Notes: generated by a model from the sequence alone, not told the origin. 39,559 nt of DNA from a virus (IMGVR_UViG_2565956762_000001:1-39559); one strand, 5' to 3'. Positions 1 to 38,992 are shown, counted from the first letter of the stretch. Made by a program: numbers and translations.

Positions 1-1284
1 TTACTTCTTCGCCTCTGCAACCACTTTGCTACCCACGCCGCGGTTATTGTATTCCCACATGCGGTTGTAGTTAGTGTCATTCAGATTGCGTTGTATTTCG
101 TCGCTATCGTCAACGCTGCCGGTGTTACCTGCGAATGGACGATTGGAAATCACCGCATCGGCCCACGGTTTCGCCGTGTTAAAACCTTCGTTGATGGCGC
201 TATCACGGATCACCACCTGACCGTTGGTATTGGCATCAACATCCAGCGAGCGGCCCAGTTGCGCCACGCCATCACCGGAAGCATTGAAACGGCTGTTTAC
301 GGCGAGGAAACCGTAATAGATGTTAGACAGCGTAGCCGGTGCAAACACATACGCTTCTTGCTGAGTACGTGAGTTCACCACGCGGAATTCGGTATTATCG
401 AACACCACTGCGCCGCGACCAGAAACGATATCCACATCCCCTTCAATATAGCTGTTGGTCACCAGAGTACGCGGCTGACGGTTGGTTTCCAGACGGTTTT
501 GCACACCACTGTTGGTGACAAAGAAGGTATTCTGACGACCGAGAATGTTGACGTTATTGATCTGCACTTTGTCGCCATCAGTACGCAGTGCCACCGCCGG
601 ATGGTTACCCGCATCTACGCTATCGCCCAGCGTGTTTTCGATGGTCAGGTTTTGCAGTTGCAGGCCATTGTTTTGTGACCAGAAGACCGCAGAGCAGAGA
701 ACGCCGATACTGTCGCTGCGTTTGCTCTGGCAGCTATCGTACATATACCACGCTGGTTTACCTGGCATATATTTGCCGCGCGGGTTGACGTCATGACGCC
801 AGTCGGCAGGGCTCATGCCCCCATCAAGGGAAAGCCCAATCTTCACATCAATCGGTTTTTCACCTGTACCGTACAGAGTAATTCCACCCGGAGCGGCAGG
901 GACATATACCGTTCCCTGATACTCACCAGGCATCACGGCAATATACTGGCGCTTGTTGGTGCGCTTGATAATTGCCGCATCTACCGCCGCCTGAATCGTG
1001 GTATGCGTTACACCTTGAGTACCCGCCGGGCCGACAACAAAGTCAGGTTGCGCAGGCAGGGTAATCGGGGAAGGATTCCACGCTGCCGCACCTGGTGTCA
1101 GGGATGCAAAATAGTGTTGAGCATCGAAATTCTGCGCTTCTTTTGCCGACAGAATCGGGCGAGAAGAGGTACCAGGCGCGGTTTGATCAGAAGGACGTTG
1201 ATCGGGCGGTGTTGAGCTACAGGCGGTCAGCGTCACGCCAAAAGCCAATGCCAGCGCCAGACGGGAAACTGAAAATGTGTTCAC
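1..1284 (-). CDS. ybhC: Host outer-membrane lipoprotein YbhC (pectinesterase-family)
   Basis: 427-aa ORF with lipoprotein-type signal peptide (…LTAC); protein recognised from memory as E. coli YbhC, which flanks attB-lambda. Stop at window position 1..3. Confidence 0.85.
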   Translation of the reverse strand: MNTFSVSRLALALAFGVTLTACSSTPPDQRPSDQTAPGTSSRPILSAKEAQNFDAQHYFASLTPGAAAWNPSPITLPAQPDFVVGPAGTQGVTHTTIQAAVDAAIIKRTNKRQYIAVMPGEYQGTVYVPAAPGGITLYGTGEKPIDVKIGLSLDGGMSPADWRHDVNPRGKYMPGKPAWYMYDSCQSKRSDSIGVLCSAVFWSQNNGLQLQNLTIENTLGDSVDAGNHPAVALRTDGDKVQINNVNILGRQNTFFVTNSGVQNRLETNRQPRTLVTNSYIEGDVDIVSGRGAVVFDNTEFRVVNSRTQQEAYVFAPATLSNIYYGFLAVNSRFNASGDGVAQLGRSLDVDANTNGQVVIRDSAINEGFNTAKPWADAVISNRPFAGNTGSVDDSDEIQRNLNDTNYNRMWEYNNRGVGSKVVAEAKK

Positions 1285-1418: not shown

Positions 1419-2489
1419 TTATTTGATTTCAATTTTGTCCCACTCCCTGCCTCTGTCATCACGATACTGTGATGCCATGGTGTCCGACTTATGCCCGAGA
1501 AGATGTTGAGCAAACTTATCGCTTATCTGCTTCTCATAGAGTCTTGCAGACAAACTGCGCAACTCGTGAAAGGTAGGCGGATCCCCTTCGAAGGAAAGAC
1601 CTGATGCTTTTCGTGCGCGCATAAAATACCTTGATACTGTGCCGGATGAAAGCGGTTCACGACGAGTAGATGCAATTATGGTTTCTCCGCCAAGAATCTC
1701 TTTGCATTTATCAAGTGTTTCCTTCATTGATATCCCGAGAGCATCAACATGCAATGTTGTTGGTATGGCAATTTTTACGCCTGTTTTGCTTTGCTCGACA
1801 TAAAGATATCCATCTACGATATCAGACCACTTCATTTCGCATAAATCACCAACTCGTTGCCCGGTAACAACAGCCAGTTCCATTGCAAGTCTGAGCCAAC
1901 ATGGTGATGATTCTGCTGCTTGATAAATTTTCAGGTATTCGTCAGCTGTAAGCCTTGATCTCCTTACCTCTGATTTTGCTGCGCGAGTGGCAGCGACCGG
2001 GTTTGTTGTTATATGGCCTTCAGCTATTGCCTCTCGGAATGCATCGCTCAGTGTTGATCTGATTAACTTGGCTGATGCCGCCTTGCCCTCGTCAATGTAT
2101 CCATTGAGCATTGCCGCAATTTCTTTTGTGGTTATGTTTTCAAGTGGAGCATCAGGCAGACCCCTCCTTATTGCTTTAATTTTGCTCATGTAATTTATGA
2201 ATGTCTTCTGCTTGATTCCTCTGCTGGCGAGGATTTTTTCGTAGCGATCAAGCCATGAATGTAACGTAACAGAATTATCACTGTTGATTCTCGCTGTCAG
2301 AGGCTTGTGTTTGTGTCCTGAAAATAACTCAATGTTGGCCTGTATAGCTTCAGTGATTGCTATCCTCCTGTCTCGGCCTAAACCAAACTCTTTACCCGTC
2401 CTTGGGTCCCTGTAGCAGTAATATCCATTGTTTCTTATATAAAGGTTAGGGGGTAAATCCCGGCGCTCATGACTTCGCCTTCTTCCCAT
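1419..2489 (-). CDS. int: Lambda-type tyrosine integrase Int
   Basis: 356-aa ORF beginning MGRRRSHERRDLPPNLYIRNNGYYCYRDP…; recognised as lambda Int; adjacent to attL. Confidence 0.97.
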   Translation of the reverse strand: MGRRRSHERRDLPPNLYIRNNGYYCYRDPRTGKEFGLGRDRRIAITEAIQANIELFSGHKHKPLTARINSDNSVTLHSWLDRYEKILASRGIKQKTFINYMSKIKAIRRGLPDAPLENITTKEIAAMLNGYIDEGKAASAKLIRSTLSDAFREAIAEGHITTNPVAATRAAKSEVRRSRLTADEYLKIYQAAESSPCWLRLAMELAVVTGQRVGDLCEMKWSDIVDGYLYVEQSKTGVKIAIPTTLHVDALGISMKETLDKCKEILGGETIIASTRREPLSSGTVSRYFMRARKASGLSFEGDPPTFHELRSLSARLYEKQISDKFAQHLLGHKSDTMASQYRDDRGREWDKIEIK

Positions 2490-2685
2490 TTCTGATCCTC
2501 TTCAAAAGGCTACCTGTTACTGGTCGATTTAAGTCAACCTTTACCGCTGATTCGTGGAACAGATACTCTCTTCCATCCTTAACCGGAGGAGGGAATATCC
2601 TGCACTCGCGTACCCATCGACGAACTGTTTCAAGGCTTCTTGGGCGTCGCTGGCGTGCGTTCCACTCCTGAAGTGTCAAGTACAT
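2467..2685 (-). CDS. xis: Excisionase Xis
   Basis: 72-aa ORF MYLTLQEWNARQRRPRSLETVRRWVRE… recognised as lambda Xis; its 3' end overlaps the int start by 23 nt. Confidence 0.95.
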   Translation of the reverse strand: MYLTLQEWNARQRRPRSLETVRRWVRECRIFPPPVKDGREYLFHESAVKVDLNRPVTGSLLKRIRNGKKAKS

Positions 2686-2790
2686 CGCAAAGTCTCCGCA
2701 ATTACACGCAAGAAAAGCCGCATTGATGCGGCAATGGTAGGTCTGGATATCTTGAGAAATGAACAGGCCTCATCGAGTGTGAGGCTGTGG

Positions 2791-3135
2791 TTAGTCCTTG
2801 CGTAGTTCGCTAATTCTTCTGTAAGTCTCTGGTGCTTTGTTTCCGTGTATCTTCATTTCAGACTTCAACAGAGCAACGAGGGAATCCCATTCGTTGAGGA
2901 TTCCTTTGAATGCCGGAACGTGCTTTGCAACCTTGTCGAATGAATCTCTGATTTCTGGAACCTGCTCAACAAGTGCAACGCATCGTCGGAAATCGGCTGC
3001 GTCATGTGGAGCGCCGAAGTGATGACCATAGATATTCTTTTTCAGTCCACATGCGATTGAGGCAAGAGTTGCGCTACTGATGCCAACATCGCCAGTCGAT
3101 TGCCATTTCAAAACCTTCATAGCCAAATCTGACAT
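2791..3135 (-). CDS. Hypothetical protein (114 aa), early-left accessory gene
   Basis: Intact ORF in operon orientation directly upstream of xis; no domain recognised. Confidence 0.55.
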   Translation of the reverse strand: MSDLAMKVLKWQSTGDVGISSATLASIACGLKKNIYGHHFGAPHDAADFRRCVALVEQVPEIRDSFDKVAKHVPAFKGILNEWDSLVALLKSEMKIHGNKAPETYRRISELRKD

Positions 3136-3174
3136 TTCTTGTCTCCATAAAACAAAACCCGCCGTAGCGAGTTC

Positions 3175-3204
3175 AGATAAAAGAAATCCCCGCGAGTGCG
3201 AGGA
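3175..3204 (-). terminator. Candidate intrinsic terminator (minus strand) between ASCH gene and 114-aa gene
   Basis: Minus-strand hairpin tcctcgc-actc-gcgggga (7 bp with one G·U) followed by a T-rich run. Confidence 0.3.
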
Positions 3205-3207
3205 TTG

Positions 3208-3492
3208 CTATTCAGTGCCGATATTCACCTTTATCGCGAATACCTTTACCGGTTTATCACCGAAGTGCGGATGTGTGATTGTCTTGATTTCATATCCGTC
3301 GTACGGGACGTCAATTCTACGGCTGGAATCTTCGCGCTTCGGATATCCCTTCGTGATAATCAGGCGGTCATACTCCCGGAACATGATTCGCTTATTCCAG
3401 TAGTCATTACACAAGCGATACTCTTCCGTTTTCTCTCCGCGAATCATGGCATCGAAGTATTCACCTTTGACGGCAAGTTGCAGGTTAGCCAC
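3208..3492 (-). CDS. ASCH-domain (PUA-like) protein
   Basis: 94-aa ORF; N-terminal …KGEYFDAMIRGEKTEEYR… resembles the ASCH motif. Confidence 0.65.
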   Translation of the reverse strand: MANLQLAVKGEYFDAMIRGEKTEEYRLCNDYWNKRIMFREYDRLIITKGYPKREDSSRRIDVPYDGYEIKTITHPHFGDKPVKVFAIKVNIGTE

Positions 3493-3772
3493 GACCTTCC
3501 TCCTTTGGCTTGTGAATTTGTATCGTCATGCCGCTTTGAGTGGTGACTACAATGACAGAACCAGGCTGAAGACTGTTAAGATTGAATGCTTCGTAAAACG
3601 AATCCAAGGCCAGCGCTTTTTTATTCTTTCGGTTCCACCAACGCCATCCCTTGCTACAGACTACACTGACAATCCACTGCCCACTCCTGTAAGCCATATA
3701 AAACCAGATGAGCAAAACCTGAAGAAATGCTATCCAGTCAATAATCGTATATTTCGCGAAGGAGTACATCAC
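3485..3772 (-). CDS. Hypothetical small protein with hydrophobic N-terminal segment (95 aa)
   Basis: ORF overlaps neighbours by a few nt on both sides; hydrophobic stretch IIDWIAFLQVLLIWFYMAY. Confidence 0.45.
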   Translation of the reverse strand: MMYSFAKYTIIDWIAFLQVLLIWFYMAYRSGQWIVSVVCSKGWRWWNRKNKKALALDSFYEAFNLNSLQPGSVIVVTTQSGMTIQIHKPKEEGRG

Positions 3773-4464
3773 TTCACCTCCTGCTGTGGTGCTGCTGGCA
3801 TTTCACGCCAGTGCGTAACTGAGTGCGGATCCGGATATTCGGTGCCATCATCCCAGCGATTGCCATTCCACATTGCAGACCACATCTCACCGTCTTCATA
3901 CATGACCATTACCGGAATTAACTTATCCGGCATTCGCTCACTACAGCTTATCCAACTATCCGGAGTTACCGGATAGTTGCCATTCACAAGGTCAGCTCGA
4001 ACATATAGCGTGTCATCATGGTGCTGATTGTGGCTGCACCACGTTAATTCGCTTAACTCGCCATCTTCTGGCCATACTCCAGCCGTTTGCAGCCAGATAT
4101 GGGCTGGCGCATCTTGGCAAGGTGTATTAACTGGCAACTTGCAAGTTTGGCTTACAGGTTCGGCTTCCAGTTCTGCTATGCGCTTTTTTGCTGTTTCCAG
4201 CTCGCCCAGCAGCGCCAAGACGGTAGCCGGATTGGCTGCGGCGATGAATTCAGCATTGGCCTGCTGTTCCATTTGGAAATCTTCATCGAAACCGCTTTCA
4301 GGATGCGCTCCTTCAATTCTGCAAATGGGAATATATCCAGCAGCCTCGCGATGAATTAGTGCATCATCACCATCAAATCGGCCCTCTCCATATTCGAGCG
4401 ACCACTCGCCACACGTTGCTTTTTCTGCCTTAGCACGCAGTGCCTGATAGTCAATCTTGCTCAC
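3769..4464 (-). CDS. Ead/Ea22-like protein with C-terminal DUF551-like region
   Basis: 231-aa ORF; central …NAEFIAAANPATVLALLGELE… and C-terminal …SVTHWREMPAAP… resemble Ead/Ea22 and DUF551 families. Confidence 0.65.
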   Translation of the reverse strand: MSKIDYQALRAKAEKATCGEWSLEYGEGRFDGDDALIHREAAGYIPICRIEGAHPESGFDEDFQMEQQANAEFIAAANPATVLALLGELETAKKRIAELEAEPVSQTCKLPVNTPCQDAPAHIWLQTAGVWPEDGELSELTWCSHNQHHDDTLYVRADLVNGNYPVTPDSWISCSERMPDKLIPVMVMYEDGEMWSAMWNGNRWDDGTEYPDPHSVTHWREMPAAPQQEVK

Positions 4465-4913
4465 TGGTTACCTCCTTTGCGAAGCTCTGCGGCGAACTCG
4501 TTAAGGGATATGTAGCAATCTCCAAATGTTAACGAACCGCTCGACTGCATATGCTCCATAGCCATCTCCACGCCCTGAGCCCGCACTTCGGCCACGAAAG
4601 CGTCGGTGGCTGGGGTTTCGATATCGTTAATTTCAGGAAGAATCTCTTCCCATGTGGCGATATCGCCATTCAAATGCCATCCGGCAATTCCACTGGAGTT
4701 ATCCGCAACACTGCGAACGGCTTCAATAGTTTCATGCATTGCCGCATTCTCCGCCTCCAGCGCCGCGCACTTGGCCTCCGCTTCAGAAAATTTACGCACC
4801 AGATATTCAGCGTTTGTTTCGTTAACCTTTAAATCACTTGGGATGCATTTACCTTTCAGAAAACCATCCATCTCAATTAGTGACATTTGTTTCATTTCTT
4901 CCCACTCCGCCAC
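4461..4913 (-). CDS. Hypothetical protein (150 aa; true start may be an internal ATG)
   Basis: ORF in operon orientation; the ORF-track start is a GTG; acidic, helix-rich composition. Confidence 0.5.
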
Positions 4914-5056
4914 ATCGCATTCAGATATTTGTTGTCATTAACAGAACCGAAACTCTTTCTCTTAAGCAATTCCTCTCTCGATGGCATTGGCTTTACGCGT
5001 TGGCGAATAATCATTTCTGCCGGAAGAATGCCGGGATTGTATGCAAGTCCTCTCAT
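4892..5056 (-). CDS. Hypothetical small protein (54 aa), below the ORF-track cutoff
   Basis: Hand-translated [54 protein letters not shown]; its ATG overlaps the stop of the upstream gene (ATGA). Confidence 0.3.
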
Positions 5057-5334
5057 GATTTACTCTCCACGAACTGGTCAATAGCCATGCTAAGTGACAC
5101 ACCTAAAGTCTCGATATGTTGCTGAATATCCTGTAGCGTCTGCGCCTGAGATAACAGGATTTCACGGTTGCATAATTCTTTAACCAGATGCTCAAACTTG
5201 CTGTAATAACCGATACGGCTTAGTGTTTCTTTCCCTGCATTCTCGCCTTCTTTGATAATTCCTCTTTCGCTAAGAATCAGATCGTGTTTGGTTCCGGTAA
5301 TAACGTATTTTCCGAGGTCGATGTTTAGCTTCAT
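5053..5334 (-). CDS. Hypothetical protein (93 aa)
   Basis: ORF in operon orientation; no domain recognised. Confidence 0.55.
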
Positions 5335-5350
5335 TGTTAATTACTCCATG

Positions 5351-5665
5351 TTAATTTATTCGTATGCCTGCTCTTTCTTCATCGAGTTTTTTTAGCTTGT
5401 ATCGCATAGCTCTTACTGAATAAATTGAGCGGCAGGTTGCAATTGCTATTTCTTCTGCGGAGAACTTACCGAAAAGTGATACTTCGGCTCTTGTCCATCG
5501 TCTTCCACGAAGTCGGCTAACAATGTCAGCGCCAATCCTTGTTGCTTTCGCCATTACTGCTTTTTCAGTCCTTTCCAGTTTTTCTGCGATAACTTCAACT
5601 GGCATTGTTGTCGCTACTTCGCGCAAGAAATCGACTTCCCATTTCTCCCATGGAGTCTTTTTCAT
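5351..5665 (-). CDS. Hypothetical protein (104 aa), possible tandem helix-turn-helix DNA-binding repeats
   Basis: Two internally similar segments (W..E..L….E.A..L.RT/kA…RiG); inference only. Confidence 0.5.
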   Translation of the reverse strand: MKKTPWEKWEVDFLREVATTMPVEVIAEKLERTEKAVMAKATRIGADIVSRLRGRRWTRAEVSLFGKFSAEEIAIATCRSIYSVRAMRYKLKKLDEERAGIRIN

Positions 5666-5676
5666 AGGCGATACCG

Positions 5677-6165
5677 TTATTTGATAAGAAGTGAAGGTTT
5701 CCCAACTTTGAGTTGAGCGCCGGGGATATTTATTCCTGCTTTTAGTTGGTGTTTGATTGCCAGTTTGTCGGCTTTTATTGTTGTTTCAAACTCAACGTAT
5801 TCAGGAGGAAGGGCGCTTGAGTCGATGATTTCTACAGTTTCTGACGGTTTGCGGATTGTTACCTGGTGAATACCTGCTCGAATATTTTTCTTGCCAACCA
5901 TTTCAAGCGATGACGCTATATATGATTTGATGCTGTCAATCTTATTTTGAATTACTGCGGCTCGCTCATTCAGTGACTTTGCCTCTTCCTTGAGGCGTTC
6001 AGCATAACCAGATTCATTTTTAATAATGGCAAGAAGTTGCTCTATTTTATCGGTAAATTCTCCTTCCATGCCTTCTATTGTGTCAGCAATCATCTCTGGC
6101 TCTAAATCTGAATCCATCAGCTTTGCGTATTCATTGGCTATTTCATACAGTTTGCTCACTGGCAA
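5677..6165 (-). CDS. Siphovirus Gp157-family protein
   Basis: 162-aa ORF immediately downstream of RecT; C-terminal …LKAGINIPGAQLKVGKPSLLIK fits my recollection of the Gp157 family. Confidence 0.6.
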   Translation of the reverse strand: MPVSKLYEIANEYAKLMDSDLEPEMIADTIEGMEGEFTDKIEQLLAIIKNESGYAERLKEEAKSLNERAAVIQNKIDSIKSYIASSLEMVGKKNIRAGIHQVTIRKPSETVEIIDSSALPPEYVEFETTIKADKLAIKHQLKAGINIPGAQLKVGKPSLLIK

Positions 6166-7045
6166 CCTCCAGTTTCGCTTTGCATTCTGCGTAAATGGCT
6201 TGTACGTTCTGCTGCAATTTCATTCCAGATGTCAGGCGATATGCTTCTGCAAAATATCGCTTCAAATCATCCATGTTTTCAGCCTGGGCCATTTCATCAC
6301 AAAGAAGTTGTGCTTTATCCATTATTTCCTGCTGGCGTTTCCGTTCATCTTCGCGGATATCTTCCTCTGATTTGTGCGGCATAACTGGTTCCTGATGCAT
6401 ACCTTCATCTTCGTTAAGCAGGTGAATGGCATTATCCAGTCGCTGGGCTTTAGGCCAGTATTTGCTGGCGCGTTTAACTATTGTTTTACGTGCCATCTCT
6501 TCCCAGAATGTTTTCCACGGTCCATTCTTTGCCTTGCTCGTTGCTTCAACAGCTTTAATTTCTGCCAGACTCATTTCTTCAGTCAGGTAGTCACCATCTG
6601 CTGTTTTAACCGTGCAATAACCACCAACAATAGAGCCTCGCTCACCAAATGCGTTGTATTTGTGGGTTGGTGCTGAATCAAGGCCGTTTGATTCATAGGT
6701 GTCGTTTGAGTACACCAGTTTGCATTGCCCCCACTTAATTGAGCCTGTCGATTGCGCAAGATGAAGTAATCCCATATAGCTGATATCAAGGCAAACCATG
6801 CCGTCGCGCGGAACCAGATAAGCCAGTTTGCTGGCCGGGTTTAAGGTGATGCCGATCGCTGCAACATTGATGATGGCGTTCTGTGCGCTGGTTGGATTTG
6901 CCAGTGCTGTTTTAGCCAGGTAATCGTTTTTCTGGAAATACTGAATTGCAAACTGGCTTTCCTTAGCCCATGTCACCGTCTGTTCAGTCAATGCTCCGCA
7001 GAATAACTGCTCTTGCTGTTTAACGAATTCAACGATATTGCTCAT
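6143..7045 (-). CDS. recT: RecT-family single-strand annealing recombinase
   Basis: 300-aa ORF; sequence recognised as RecT-like; position equivalent to lambda bet / P22 erf. Confidence 0.8.
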   Translation of the reverse strand: MSNIVEFVKQQEQLFCGALTEQTVTWAKESQFAIQYFQKNDYLAKTALANPTSAQNAIINVAAIGITLNPASKLAYLVPRDGMVCLDISYMGLLHLAQSTGSIKWGQCKLVYSNDTYESNGLDSAPTHKYNAFGERGSIVGGYCTVKTADGDYLTEEMSLAEIKAVEATSKAKNGPWKTFWEEMARKTIVKRASKYWPKAQRLDNAIHLLNEDEGMHQEPVMPHKSEEDIREDERKRQQEIMDKAQLLCDEMAQAENMDDLKRYFAEAYRLTSGMKLQQNVQAIYAECKAKLEVASEQTV

Positions 7046-7353
7046 GCAGCTTCTCCATAAATATGTCTGCGTTTGAATATTGCGAAGGCATATTCAGCCT
7101 TAACTCTTTCGGTTATTGCATCCCAGAACCATTCAGCGGCTTTTTCCTGATAGTTACAGTCATCATCTTCCAGCCAGTCGATAGCGTCCTTAGTGTGTTC
7201 ATCTGGTTTATATGAGCGAAGCATTTCGCTTATTGGGTCGCAACGTTTGCAGAGGCGATCAACTTCACTGTTGATTCGTTCGTAATCTTCATCAGTAAAA
7301 CTTGCGATTATTTGCGATATTTCACGCTTATCATTCAGAGTCAGAATCATCAT
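7042..7353 (-). CDS. Hypothetical protein (103 aa) at the gam/abc position upstream of recT
   Basis: ORF overlaps the recT start by 4 nt; acidic; function inferred from position only. Confidence 0.5.
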   Translation of the reverse strand: MMILTLNDKREISQIIASFTDEDYERINSEVDRLCKRCDPISEMLRSYKPDEHTKDAIDWLEDDDCNYQEKAAEWFWDAITERVKAEYAFAIFKRRHIYGEAA

Positions 7354-7438
7354 CTTTCTCCTGTTCTTTGTGCTGATTGAGCATTTCTTTCATATGACGA
7401 ATGAATTCTTCGTCTGACCAGTTATCTGTAAAACTCAT
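7331..7438 (-). CDS. Hypothetical acidic micro-protein (35 aa) translationally coupled to cIII
   Basis: Hand-translated MSFTDNWSDEEFIRHMKEMLNQHKEQEKDDDSDSE; its ATG overlaps the cIII stop (ATGA). Sits where lambda has kil. Confidence 0.25.
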   Translation of the reverse strand: MSFTDNWSDEEFIRHMKEMLNQHKEQEKDDDSDSE

Positions 7439-7605
7439 GGACGGCCTTGTTGTTTCAAAATATCCCAAAGCTTTTCGAGCAAGCTTTTCATTCTTGGTTG
7501 TTTAAAGTCTGCTCCGGTTAAAATGTTTTTTCGTGAATGCTGTACCGATAAAATCGGGTTGAAAGGGCGAACCGATGCCGCCCCTGCAATAGCGAACTGT
7601 TGCAT
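7435..7605 (-). CDS. cIII: CIII-like regulator (FtsH inhibitor family)
   Basis: 56-aa product MQQFAIAGAAS…LLEKLWDILKQQGRP resembles lambda CIII (MQYAIAG…; …IDILNQPG). GGAG RBS about 6 nt upstream. The ORF-track 91-aa version starts upstream and spans a terminator hairpin, so I use the internal Met. Confidence 0.65.
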   Translation of the reverse strand: MQQFAIAGAASVRPFNPILSVQHSRKNILTGADFKQPRMKSLLEKLWDILKQQGRP

Positions 7606-7665
7606 AGGATGCTCCTTCTGTTTGATTGCATAACGAAAACGCCTCGAGTGAAGCGTTATTGGTAT

Positions 7666-7695
7666 GCATATAAAAAGGCCCTCACACTGGAGGGC
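7666..7695 (-). terminator. tL-type intrinsic terminator upstream of cIII (minus strand)
   Basis: Hairpin gccctc-(6 nt)-gagggc followed on the minus strand by CTTTTTAT. Confidence 0.55.
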
Positions 7696-7788
7696 AAAGA
7701 AGAGTTCCAATAATCAGAACAAGTCGGCTCCTGTTTAGTTACGAGCGACATTGCTCACATAGCAGACTCGTAAATCTGCTATAGGCGC

Positions 7789-7950
7789 TTATTCGCATCG
7801 CATGACAACATCAAATTTTTCGAGATTACTTTGTCGCAACAATCCTTCTTCTACGCGGTCAGCTTTTCTATAATTATCAAATTCGAAATGTTTAATTACT
7901 TCTTTTGTTTCTCGCTCTATAACTTCAACAATGTATTTCTTATTCATCAT
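7789..7950 (-). CDS. Hypothetical small protein (53 aa), below the ORF-track cutoff
   Basis: Hand-translated MMNKKYIVEVIERETKEVIKHFEFDNYRKADRVEEGLLRQSNLEKFDVVMRCE; ATG overlaps the upstream stop (ATGA). Confidence 0.3.
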   Translation of the reverse strand: MMNKKYIVEVIERETKEVIKHFEFDNYRKADRVEEGLLRQSNLEKFDVVMRCE

Positions 7951-8249
7951 TCTTCCCCAAGAGCTTTTCTGATTGCTGCAAGACCTTTATTAACAGCTCC
8001 ATACCATTCTGGATATGTTGTCTTTGTTCTATTTTTGGTTTGCTTAAGTAATAACTGAAGTGCTTCGAGAAGGTCAGGTGCTGCCGCTATTAGATTGGCA
8101 TCTTCAATGCATTGAACTTCCTCACAGATTGCAATATACGAACGCCAGCCTGCGCCATTTTCAAGTGAGGCTGCCTGGATGATTTTAATCTCATCGCCAT
8201 CCATCATTATTTCCCACTTACCTTCAGTACCTTTAAATTCCATGTTCAC
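7947..8249 (-). CDS. Hypothetical protein (100 aa), pL operon
   Basis: ORF in operon orientation between N and cIII. Confidence 0.5.
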   Translation of the reverse strand: MNMEFKGTEGKWEIMMDGDEIKIIQAASLENGAGWRSYIAICEEVQCIEDANLIAAAPDLLEALQLLLKQTKNRTKTTYPEWYGAVNKGLAAIRKALGEE

Positions 8250-8282
8250 CTCTGTTGTTTATGTCAAAAATAAAGGCCACCA

Positions 8283-8534
8283 TCAGGCAGCCTTGTTGTA
8301 AATGTTGCAGGTATCAAGTAAGTAATTAGATGGAGCGCCATAAATTATGAATTCATCGTTTGTCGGGTCCATCTCCATCTCTTGGCCTATTGCCATTCTT
8401 GCGTCAGTGTCATCAGCGGCGAAGCATAAAACAGCCCACGCACCCATTGTTTTAAAAAGAACTGCAATTGGCTGTGGTTTTACTGAATTTGCGTTAGCGC
8501 GAAAATCACAAATCGCACTTTCATGAAACTCCAT
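8283..8534 (-). CDS. Hypothetical protein (83 aa), pL operon
   Basis: ORF directly downstream of N. Confidence 0.45.
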   Translation of the reverse strand: MEFHESAICDFRANANSVKPQPIAVLFKTMGAWAVLCFAADDTDARMAIGQEMEMDPTNDEFIIYGAPSNYLLDTCNIYNKAA

Positions 8535-8542
8535 ATCTCACC

Positions 8543-8842
8543 TCAAATAAGTGGTTTACTTCCTAATTTCATTTTCTGGCGACCAACACAAGTCACACCC
8601 ATTTCGCTGCGTGGCTTGCGGTAGTAAATACCGTTCTGTTTACGATCGACTTCTTCTGCCTTCTTGCAGCGAAGGCTTCCGAGTGATGCTGCTTTGTCTG
8701 CTCTGACGCAACCAGAGAGCTTTAGCGCAATTTTTCGCGCCAGTCGCTGCTCTTGCATTGCCTGTTCACGTTGAGCCTGTCTGCGTGCTCTGCGGCGATT
8801 TCTGGCGTTATCGTCAGCCAGATATGTAATGACTACTGTCAT
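8543..8842 (-). CDS. N: N-like transcription antiterminator
   Basis: 99-aa ORF; arginine-rich N-terminus (…NARNRRRARRQAQREQ…); C-terminus …GVTCVGRQKMKLGSKPLI resembles the lambda N C-terminus (…ITCSGRQKIKGKSIPLI); located immediately downstream of nutL. Confidence 0.8.
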   Translation of the reverse strand: MTVVITYLADDNARNRRRARRQAQREQAMQEQRLARKIALKLSGCVRADKAASLGSLRCKKAEEVDRKQNGIYYRKPRSEMGVTCVGRQKMKLGSKPLI

Positions 8843-9156: not shown

Positions 9157-9807
9157 TTATGGAAGGTTTGCTAGTTTTGCATCGACAACTACGCCGATGA
9201 TTTTGCAGTTTCCGTTGATCTCGATCATCGGATATTGTGGGTTAAGTGGTTTTAGAAACTTCCTGCCTGCATCAATAACTAACTTCTTGAAAGTTGCCTC
9301 GTTTTCTCCTTCGAGCTTTGCAACTACCAGTTTCCCGTTACGCGGCTCTACTTCAGGATCGACGAGTATTATCATTCCTTCAGGGATACTGAGACCGGCC
9401 GGAGCCGTCATTGAGTCTCCCTTCACGTCCAACCAAAACGAATCTTCTGAACAGTCTACGGTTGTATCGTACCAGTTATCTATTGCACGCTTATGATATG
9501 GTTCTACAGCTTCCATCCAGCATCCTGCGCTCACCCAGCTAATCAGAGGGTATGACCCTCTTGGATCATGCCTACTGTGATAGGCAATGTTTGAAAGACT
9601 TTCCTCTCCTTTCATCAGATAGTCAGGGGAACACTTCAACGCATTAGCCAGGGCGAGAAGATTCTCTCCATTTGGCTCTGTCTCAGAGCGTTCCCACTGA
9701 GATATGGCAACATTAGACACGCCGACCATCTTTCCAAGTGCGGCCTGCCTGATCTTGAGTTCTTTTCTCCGAGCGCGAATGCGCTCTCCCATCAATTGAG
9801 TTTTCAT
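9157..9807 (-). CDS. cI: Prophage repressor, P22 C2 / phage-21 cI type (HTH + S24 LexA-like autopeptidase domain)
   Basis: 216-aa ORF MKTQLMGERIRARRKELKIRQAALGKMVGVSNVAISQWERSETEPNG… recognised as P22 C2-like; GDSM and VVAKL catalytic motifs present. Confidence 0.93.
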   Translation of the reverse strand: MKTQLMGERIRARRKELKIRQAALGKMVGVSNVAISQWERSETEPNGENLLALANALKCSPDYLMKGEESLSNIAYHSRHDPRGSYPLISWVSAGCWMEAVEPYHKRAIDNWYDTTVDCSEDSFWLDVKGDSMTAPAGLSIPEGMIILVDPEVEPRNGKLVVAKLEGENEATFKKLVIDAGRKFLKPLNPQYPMIEINGNCKIIGVVVDAKLANLP

Positions 9808-9887: not shown

Positions 9888-10073
9888 ATGTACAAGAAAG
9901 ATGTTATCGACCACTTCGGAACCCAGCGTGCTGTAGCTAAAGCGTTAGGCATTAGCGACGCAGCAGTCTCTCAGTGGAAGGAAGTCATCCCAGAGAAAGA
10001 CGCCTATCGACTGGAAGTCGTTACAGCTGGCGCCCTGAAGTATCAAGAAAGCGCTTACCGCAAAGCGGCATAA
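9888..10073 (+). CDS. cro: Cro (P22-type)
   Basis: 61-aa ORF MYKKDVIDHFGTQRAVAKALGISDAAVSQWKEV… recognised as P22 Cro-like; first gene downstream of PR. Confidence 0.93.
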   Translation: MYKKDVIDHFGTQRAVAKALGISDAAVSQWKEVIPEKDAYRLEVVTAGALKYQESAYRKAA

Positions 10074-38977: not shown

Positions 38978-38992
38978 GCTTTTTTATACTAA
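38978..38992. other. attR core (P-O-B'); P arm occupies roughly 38740..38977
   Basis: Core GCTTTTTTATACTAA followed by host CTTGAGCG; upstream text (…ctgttacaggtcactaataccatctaagt…) resembles the lambda attP P arm. Confidence 0.9.

Follow-up and report, generated by a model that had tools for sequence, protein, structure and literature searches.

Eight small genes between xis and the recombination genes of a P22/HK620-like prophage: a probable early-left accessory region built of a fixed block and exchangeable cassettes

The gene chain and its position

The stretch of viral DNA IMGVR_UViG_2565956762_000001:1-39559 (hereafter the window, meaning all of its 39,559 nucleotides (nt)) carries a complete 37.6-kb prophage of the P22/HK620-like type, sited at the lambda attachment (att) site beside ybhC. 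At positions 2791-5665, between xis and the Gp157/RecT genes, we identified eight open reading frames (ORFs) on the minus strand, with products of 114, 94, 95, 231, 150, 54, 93 and 104 amino acids (aa). They are referred to below by these lengths (w114, w94 and so on); their number, sizes and location agree with a sequence-only reading of the same DNA. The segment is, in our judgement very probably, the ea accessory part of the early-left operon of this prophage, equivalent to the ‘exo-xis’ region of lambda.

Every gene from N through int lies on the minus strand, and the eight-gene chain therefore belongs to the early-left (pL) operon. Read along this strand, the order is N, RecT, Gp157, the eight ORFs, xis and int, which is the accessory position of lambdoid early-left operons. 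The placement in the early-left arm that the sequence-only reading had proposed thus stands: the chain shares its strand with an N-like antiterminator gene, a pL-like promoter and a CI-type repressor gene, and lies downstream of all three. A consensus scan of positions 2400-6000 gave no promoter-like site except a weak one inside Gp157, and no Rfam family reached its gathering score anywhere in the window.

Stop and start codons overlap, by 4-8 nt, at five of the seven internal junctions, which are consecutive, and neither the first nor the last gene of the chain is coupled; the overlap that had been proposed for ‘almost all’ of the genes holds for most of them. The genes were also said to be co-translated from pL, for which co-transcribed would be the right word, and the transcript must pass at least three terminator-like hairpins. 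One or two of these structures lie in the interval between w114 and xis (2717-2785), and a gap of about 96 nt is found at the corresponding place in P22 (eaA-eaG) and HK620 (hkaE-hkaD). With at least three hairpins in its path, a transcript covering the whole chain must be antiterminated, which implies antitermination by N, and we infer that expression of the chain is early and N-dependent. In P22 (abc1 to eaC) and in HK620 (hkaJ to hkaD), 4-nt overlaps are likewise annotated together with a single gap of about 96 nt; the overlap pattern is the norm for an ea region and nothing peculiar to this window.

All eight products match PHROG families (E 5e-23 to 9e-53), and for most of them a sequenced phage has a gene with 94-100% identity. 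The sequence-only reading had considered only ASCH and Ead/Ea22/DUF551 tentatively recognisable, to which DUF4752, DUF2737 and DUF5405, all above their Pfam thresholds, have to be added. In related viral-contig loci, variable sites were counted by codon position (1/2/3) in the minus-strand frames. Six of the eight genes show a third-position bias: w94 (15/11/50), w93 (8/3/28), w114 (10/9/33), w54 (10/11/26), w95 (10/9/26) and w104 (4/2/9). The other two, w150 and w231, have no ungapped full-length relatives in that set and stand outside this count; their reality is supported by strong family matches (phrog_614 for the former, Ead_Ea22 and DUF551 for the latter). Judged by these substitution patterns and family matches, all eight ORFs are real, conserved genes.

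Table 1 Features of the eight-gene chain, its junctions and the surrounding prophage. Junctions are given in the direction of transcription
Feature	Coordinates	Strand	Assignment and remarks
w104	5351-5665	-	Basic (isoelectric point 10), 104 aa; phrog_11492 and phrog_323; last gene of the RecT-Gp157-HTH (helix-turn-helix) block
w93	5053-5334	-	DUF5405, 93 aa; Pfam DUF5405; Sf6 gp24 / HK446 gp29 type
w54	4892-5056	-	Basic DUF2737, 54 aa; Pfam DUF2737, 5e-29; P22 orf56 / HK620 hkaI / HK97 gp38 type
w150	4461-4895	-	Acidic, EaE / HK97 gp37 / HK446 gp27 (Oad2)-like; phrog_614, 3e-48
w231	3769-4464	-	Ea22-like ‘V2’; Ead/Ea22 N-terminus and coiled coil, then DUF551 C-terminal domain
w95	3485-3772	-	DUF4752 small membrane protein (predicted), 95 aa; Pfam DUF4752, 2.4e-36
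w94	3208-3492	-	Small ASCH (PUA-like) protein (predicted), 94 aa; phrog_625, 7e-51; GxKxxExR motif
w114	2791-3135	-	Orphan family, 114 aa; own GGAG; phrog_1229, 1.3e-51
Junction Gp157 to w104			11-nt gap
Junction w104 to w93			16-nt gap containing GGAG
Junction w93 to w54			ATGA overlap
Junction w54 to w150			22-nt overlap from GTG, or ATGA from the ATG at 4895
Junction w150 to w231			GTGA overlap, preceded by GGAGG
Junction w231 to w95			GTGA or TGATG, preceded by GGAGG
Junction w95 to w94			8-nt overlap, preceded by GGAGG
Junction w94 to w114			72-nt gap
Junction w114 to xis			105-nt gap
Two tandem intrinsic-terminator-like hairpins	3206-3185 and 3174-3155	-	Consensus scan; within the 72-nt gap between w94 and w114
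Terminator-like hairpin, then T run	2717-2732	-	GCCGCATCAATGCGGC TTTTCTT; consensus scan; within the 105-nt gap between w114 and xis
Gp157	5677-6165	-	Pfam Sipho_Gp157, 1.2e-37; PHROG ‘Mu Gam-like end protection’
RecT	6143-7045	-	Pfam RecT, 2.5e-33; PHROG ‘RecT-like’
N-like antiterminator gene	8543-8842	-	phrog_271, 9e-36
pL-like leftward promoter, sigma-70-like	9065-9037	-	Consensus match
CI-type repressor gene	9157-9807		Immunity region (8.5-10.1 kb)
cro	9888-10073		Immunity region
xis, excisionase	2467-2685	-	ORF and PHROG excisionase match
int, lambda-type integrase	1419-2489	-	ORF and PHROG integrase match
lambda att core	1331-1345 and 38978-38992		Exact copies of GCTTTTTTATACTAA, 15 bp, bounding the prophage
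End of ybhC-type gene	1-1284		Left of the att core at 1331-1345

A fixed block and a shuffled array

Gene order was compared across 80 viral contigs, all with a near-identical copy of w104, using flanks of 3 kb. Gp157 lies directly upstream of w104 in all 80 of them, and the gene directly downstream is DUF2737 in 43 and DUF5405 in 37. DUF2737 is found downstream of w104 in 79 contigs and is the most constant gene of the region. The remaining genes are far more scattered: an Ea22-like gene is present in 55 contigs, DUF551 in 45, an EaE/Oad2-like gene in 39, ASCH in 19 and DUF4752 and w114 in 15 each. Altogether, 71 different gene orders occur downstream of w104 in this sample. The chain consists of a fixed block (RecT-Gp157-w104, usually DUF5405, then DUF2737) followed by a shuffled array of cassettes, and such a number of orders indicates exchangeable cassettes, not one system. 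The DUF2737 gene marks the boundary between the two parts, and may double as a conserved crossover point for the exchange of modules.

The arrangement is mosaic also at the level of nucleotide identity. Coverage of the segment stays below 80% in every phage record and every complete E. coli genome, and pieces of it, at 90-99% identity, are spread over 545 phage records and 3720 of the 5426 E. coli genomes. RecBCD modulators and anti-immunity genes have been described as concentrating in this kind of locus, a modular hotspot (bioRxiv 10.64898/2026.07.10.737580).

Comparison with the ea regions of P22, HK620 and lambda

Comparison with the lambda ea/orf and the P22 eae-eai regions, which the sequence-only reading had recommended, placed the chain at the same position and revealed the same overlap pattern in the ea region of P22. 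The latter (eaC-eaG-eaA-eaI-eaD-eaF-orf45-eaE-orf56) and the hkaD-hkaI genes of HK620 likewise lie on the pL strand between the recombination module and xis/int, and likewise consist of small ORFs with 4-nt overlaps. Three of our genes have direct or partial homologs there: w54 corresponds to orf56/hkaI and w150 to EaE/hkaH, and w231 resembles EaD/hkaG in its N-terminus and, via DUF551, EaA/hkaE in its C-terminus. In contrast, w94, w95, w93, w104 and w114 have no BLASTP counterpart in either phage, and the recombination module is RecT-Gp157 here, but Erf-Abc1-Abc2 or Sak4-SSB in P22/HK620.

The ‘exo-xis’ region of lambda and Shiga toxin (Stx) phages (orf60a, orf63, orf61, orf73, ea22, ea8.5) shares with the chain its position, its early expression class and a gene of the Ead/Ea22 family. 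This region is reported to influence lysogenisation and induction (PMC7093339). Unlike in lambda, orf60a, orf61, orf63 and ea8.5 are all absent here, and similarity to the lambda proteins is confined to the N-terminal region of Ea22 (25% identity to w231, E 0.001).

The tandem helix-turn-helix protein w104

The AlphaFold2 model of w104 (predicted local distance difference test, pLDDT, 81.8) comprises two three-helix bundles, with helices at residues 8-17, 23-30 and 34-44 and then at 59-66, 70-77 and 81-103, joined by a less confident linker. The Pfam HTH_12 model matches the second half at 20.8 bits, just below its threshold of 21.4. The family profile matches the GerE-type HTH of NarL (E 0.003) and, in a search of 1.84 billion representative proteins, retrieved 3135 proteins at E <= 0.001. 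Among them are many proteins of 300-900 aa in which 4-11 repeats are matched and which are picked up by the Myb_DNA-binding, Sigma70_r4_2, GcrA and related HTH models; in at least one case there is a fusion with helicase domains. The relatives also include forms of 151-153 aa with a third copy of a unit of about 45 residues (W-x2-E-x2-L ... IA ... RS-x3-V), some of which score as Sigma70_r4_2. Model, NarL match and repeat-HTH relatives together bear out the earlier suggestion that the 104-aa product is a tandem HTH.

Foldseek comparison of the model with PDB returned non-significant matches only, no full-length match reaching significance (best E 0.075). The uncertain orientation of the two bundles towards each other (predicted template modelling score, pTM, 0.47) is the probable cause. 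All the look-alikes are bipartite HTH proteins, namely a CRISPR-repeat-binding protein, Pax paired domains, DUX4, Mos1 and NarL/RcsB. An internal-repeat test of w104 by pairwise alignment was not significant, and the repeat is supported instead by the structure model, the profiles and the three-repeat relatives. On this evidence w104 is a tandem HTH protein resembling the Myb/SANT or sigma70-region-4 kind and would probably bind DNA; compared with the Myb/SANT, sigma70 region 4 and GcrA repeat proteins, it has two repeats only and no other domain. The three-repeat relatives, which are more distant, directly follow recombination modules (Gam-?-YqaJ in one case, Erf-? in another), and are themselves followed by genes for DNA methyltransferases (Dam or other) with overlapping stop and start codons. 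This arrangement is reminiscent of GcrA-like HTH proteins, which are paired with methylases.

The possible relation of w104 to Abc1 of P22 requires closer consideration. The homolog of w104 in the Lederbergvirus ‘Gally’ of E. coli LF82 (99% identity; L001 6124-6438, g26) is labelled ‘Anti-RecBCD protein 1, similar to P22 Abc1’. We rejected homology between the two: BLASTP found no match at E <= 1, hhalign gave a probability of 13.5% despite an E value of 0.002, and in a shuffle test, which was not significant, 260 of 2000 shuffles reached the observed score. The label in Gally appears to have been assigned from position. P22 Abc1, like w104, is encoded directly after the annealing-protein module and is a basic protein of about 100 aa with HTH content, but the two have no significant sequence similarity; their resemblance is positional and architectural only. 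HTH content has been reported for Abc1, which is poorly characterised and of undefined function.

An alternative to the accessory reading starts from this resemblance: w104 and w93 could functionally replace Abc1 and Abc2 of P22, modulating RecBCD and serving RecT, in which case the upstream part of the chain would belong to recombination and not to the accessory genes. The two genes sit exactly at the abc1/abc2 positions, between the annealing protein and DUF2737, and w104 is locked to RecT-Gp157 in every contig of the synteny sample. The motif W-x2-E...IA...GRS...V is common to Abc1 and the w104 family, the three-repeat relatives follow Gam-YqaJ or Erf modules, and the Gally annotation points the same way. 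However, besides the failure of sequence comparison for w104, BLASTP found no match between w93 and Abc2, and the w93 family profile reached an hhalign probability of 0.2% against Abc2. The true Abc2 coexists with DUF5405 in HK446, which makes DUF5405 no substitute for it. Moreover, the module already has a Mu-Gam-like end-protection protein (Gp157), and the molecular function of Abc1 is itself undefined. We consider the replacement of Abc1 and Abc2 rather unlikely, and keep the accessory-region reading for the chain.

Products of the other genes

The sequence-only reading called the region largely uncharacterised, and most of the genes are indeed without a demonstrated function; w150 has an experimentally characterised homolog, Oad2 (HK446 gp27). 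It is not the case that all ORFs have well-characterised roles, an outcome that the sequence-only reading had named as speaking against its own view. None of the eight proteins matched PADLOC defence models at E <= 0.1, and an NCBIfam search gave no meaningful match. Sequence searches against PDB chains with w104, w93, w114, w94, w231 and w150 returned nothing significant, and the same is true of the family profiles of w104, w93 and w114, apart from the weak NarL HTH match of w104. Peptides of six of the proteins found no match in the supplements of the accessory-gene screen of Silas et al. 2023, so these genes are not among the 200 tested there.

The mechanical ORF of w150 begins at a GTG at 4913, giving 150 aa, and an ATG at 4895 gives 144 aa. 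The shorter form is probably correct, since this ATG corresponds to the first residue of the homologs HK620 hkaH and HK446 gp27. Against HK446 gp27, w150 is 42% identical (BLASTP, E 7e-35), with the full query (100%) aligned by tblastn. Identity is almost complete over the first 38 residues, a 15-letter motif and the C-terminal LRKGGNQ are conserved, and the middle part differs. HK446 gp27 is Oad2, a relative of P22 EaE that binds the OLD abortive-infection tRNase of P2 and blocks its activation (bioRxiv 10.64898/2026.07.10.737580). The gene order supports the comparison: as in the gp29-gp28-gp27 run of HK446, w150 follows the DUF5405 and DUF2737 genes, w54 being the homolog of gp28 and w150 a full-length homolog of gp27. 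The identity to Oad2 is only 42% and is concentrated in the N-terminus, one motif and the C-terminus. From the alignment, homology of w150 to Oad2 is secure; by analogy, the protein would probably inhibit an OLD-type or another host defence protein.

The DUF5405 protein w93 is 100% identical to HK446 gp29. Its model (pLDDT 90.3, pTM 0.74) consists of four beta strands followed by two helices, a fold also predicted in uncharacterised proteins from Salmonella, Morganella, Providencia, Bacillus, Cellulophaga and Lactobacillus phages. We rejected the PHROG label ‘replication initiation protein’ for DUF5405, which appears to be a propagated name with nothing found behind it. For the reasons given above, w93 was also rejected as a homolog of Abc2. 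The following gene, w54, encodes a protein with 94% identity to HK620 hkaI and 72% to P22 orf56, and has ATGA overlaps at both ends. Purifying selection on it is weaker than on the adjacent genes (ratio of synonymous to nonsynonymous changes, 32:29).

The largest product, w231, combines two Pfam domains: Ead_Ea22 (PF13935; residues 2-102, 2e-21, 77.5 bits against a cut-off of 27) and DUF551 (PF04448; residues 170-227, 2e-17, 64.2 bits against a cut-off of 22). Over residues 1-120 it shares 72% identity with HK620 hkaG, and over residues 95-231 it shares 93% with the ‘EaA’ protein of Gally. On these alignments the gene is visibly a recombinant of two known genes, with the apparent joint in the coiled-coil segment around residues 95-120. 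Its architecture is that of the Stx variant ‘Ea22 V2’ with DUF551 (PMC10834534). Ea22 of lambda and Stx phages is tetrameric (PMC10834534) and is reported as pro-lysogenic (PMC10834534, PMC7093339); w231 would, by analogy, probably bias the lysis/lysogeny decision as Ea22 does.

In w95 (96% identity to Gally g22) a single N-terminal transmembrane helix is predicted at residues 9-27, with a Kyte-Doolittle maximum of 1.78 over 19 residues and a basic segment after it; the protein may accordingly be expected to act at the membrane. The sequence RGEKTEEYR of w94 fits the pattern GxKxxExR (G19, K21, E24, R26, near the N-terminus), a conserved ASCH motif of the alpha1-beta2 region (PMC6803910). The Pfam ASCH model scores 14.3 bits against a gathering cut-off of 21.2, and covers residues 6-28 only; RefSeq calls close homologs of w94 ‘ASCH domain-containing protein’. 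Relatives occur in 497 viral contigs, the best 80 of these 497 being 95-99% identical. Going by its motif, w94 would probably bind RNA or a nucleotide. Finally, w114 is 97% identical to Gally g20 and has no stop/start coupling to either neighbour; searches of Pfam, NCBIfam and PDB, its family profile included, gave no match.

Functional reading and its alternatives

The above findings suggest the following course of events. Inactivation of the repressor on induction, or infection, would start transcription from pL, which an N-like protein would make resistant to terminators. The transcript would read the recombination genes, then the eight small genes, then xis and int, with the internal hairpins being read through. 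At the overlaps preceded by Shine-Dalgarno sequences, ribosomes would re-initiate from gene to gene and couple five consecutive pairs. Each product would have its own action on the host; w104 would probably bind DNA, either serving the recombination block or regulating it, and the collective role is likely a non-essential one in host takeover, counter-defence and tuning of the lysis/lysogeny choice. As to its kind, the region is already known: every gene belongs to a catalogued family, and it is no new kind of element.

Several points weigh against reading the chain as an ea accessory region with these functions. The promoter, the nut site and the terminators of this prophage are consensus matches only. 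The families with any experimentally studied relative are two of the eight, with narrow specificity. The assignment of w94 to ASCH consists of a motif and a sub-threshold Pfam match. An Oad2 homolog of HK75, with 54% identity, does not inhibit OLD (bioRxiv 10.64898/2026.07.10.737580), while w150 is less similar to Oad2 than that protein is, and activity on OLD is hence not inferable at its level of identity. The synteny sample is one of close relatives with short flanks, and contig ends may cause some of the variability in order.

A more specific proposal is that RecT-Gp157-w104-(DUF5405)-DUF2737 and the cassettes that follow are a counter-defence hotspot, in which small proteins inhibit or decoy the sensors of RecBCD or recombination status, and w104 is a cofactor of the Rec module, analogous to Abc1 and unrelated to it in sequence. 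The sensors could be OLD-family nucleases and retrons, and candidate proteins could be w150 (a divergent Oad2 whose target would be new), DUF5405, DUF2737, w114 and the ASCH protein. We put this forward tentatively, as a possibility with the odds still clearly against it.

A different purpose would be served if the genes were ‘morons’ of lysogenic conversion or defence, expressed by the resident prophage and protecting its host by superinfection exclusion or anti-phage activity. In general terms, the sequence-only reading named superinfection among the functions of such a region, w95 is predicted to be a small protein of the membrane, and w114 is flanked on both sides by terminator-like hairpins. 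However, none of the eight proteins matches PADLOC, the segment has no promoter-like site of its own beyond the weak one inside Gp157, and all eight genes are oriented with the CI-repressed pL operon. Furthermore, the characterised relatives serve the phage, by counter-defence or by control of lysis and lysogeny. We regard this explanation as very unlikely and return to the early-left accessory region for the next question, namely whether its genes work together.

The coupling could be taken to suggest one unit, and the five consecutive overlaps would indeed give coupled, roughly stoichiometric translation, as expected for a pathway or a multi-protein complex; the trio DUF5405-DUF2737-EaE/Oad2-like recurs in HK446 and HK140. 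Nevertheless, the 104-aa gene belongs to a fixed block with RecT and Gp157 and the genes downstream are shuffled, individual cassettes other than DUF2737 are present in a part of the contigs only, w93, w54 and w94 are missing from Gally, and several of the genes from P22. Unrelated neighbours in P22 and HK620 show the same overlaps. A single co-functioning system is highly improbable, and the tight coupling reflects a compact operon style, not joint function.

Another observation concerns the plus strand. An ORF of 116 aa at 3196-3546, antisense to w94, matches phrog_20945 at 2e-59. In 54 variants of w94, 50 of 77 variable sites fall on third codon positions of its frame, and the ratio of synonymous to nonsynonymous changes is 59:36 in the minus frame vs 18:77 in the plus frame; nine of the 54 variants interrupt the plus-strand ORF. 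It is, by this substitution pattern, non-coding and a shadow of w94, and phrog_20945 looks like a collection of wrong-strand gene calls. The notion that not all eight ORFs are genes and that the true ones lie on the other strand, for which this single match speaks, can practically be discarded, as the variants favour the minus frame, the other plus-strand ORFs of the region have no family match, and third-position bias is seen in most of the chain.

Value of the locus

The practical value of the chain is a shortlist of anti-defence candidates. Counter-defence proteins that have recently come from this type of locus are Abc2, gp33 as a trigger of OLD and Oad2 as its inhibitor. About two thirds of complete E. 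coli genomes contain parts of the block, and because it is so widespread, functions for DUF5405, DUF2737, DUF4752, phrog_1229 and the phage ASCH family would annotate thousands of prophage genes. Two facts narrow the search: the tandem-HTH gene is locked to RecT-Gp157, and DUF2737 is near-invariant, with everything after it shuffled.

The prophage and its neighbouring genes

The att core GCTTTTTTATACTAA occurs twice in the window, with a chance expectation of 0. The replication and virion genes have about 97% identity to those of HK620-like podoviruses, and the best overall phage match of positions 2791-5665 is Gally. A P22/HK620-like podovirus here uses the int/xis/att module of lambda.

The long form of Gp157, which starts at a TTG, overlaps the end of RecT by 23 nt; the form annotated in Gally is 16 residues shorter. 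Between N and RecT (7042-8534, minus strand) are four further small early-left genes of 83, 100, 53 and 103 aa, which belong to phrog_2471, 1273, 6949 and 3486 and are of unassigned function. The 103-aa gene accompanies RecT in related contigs.

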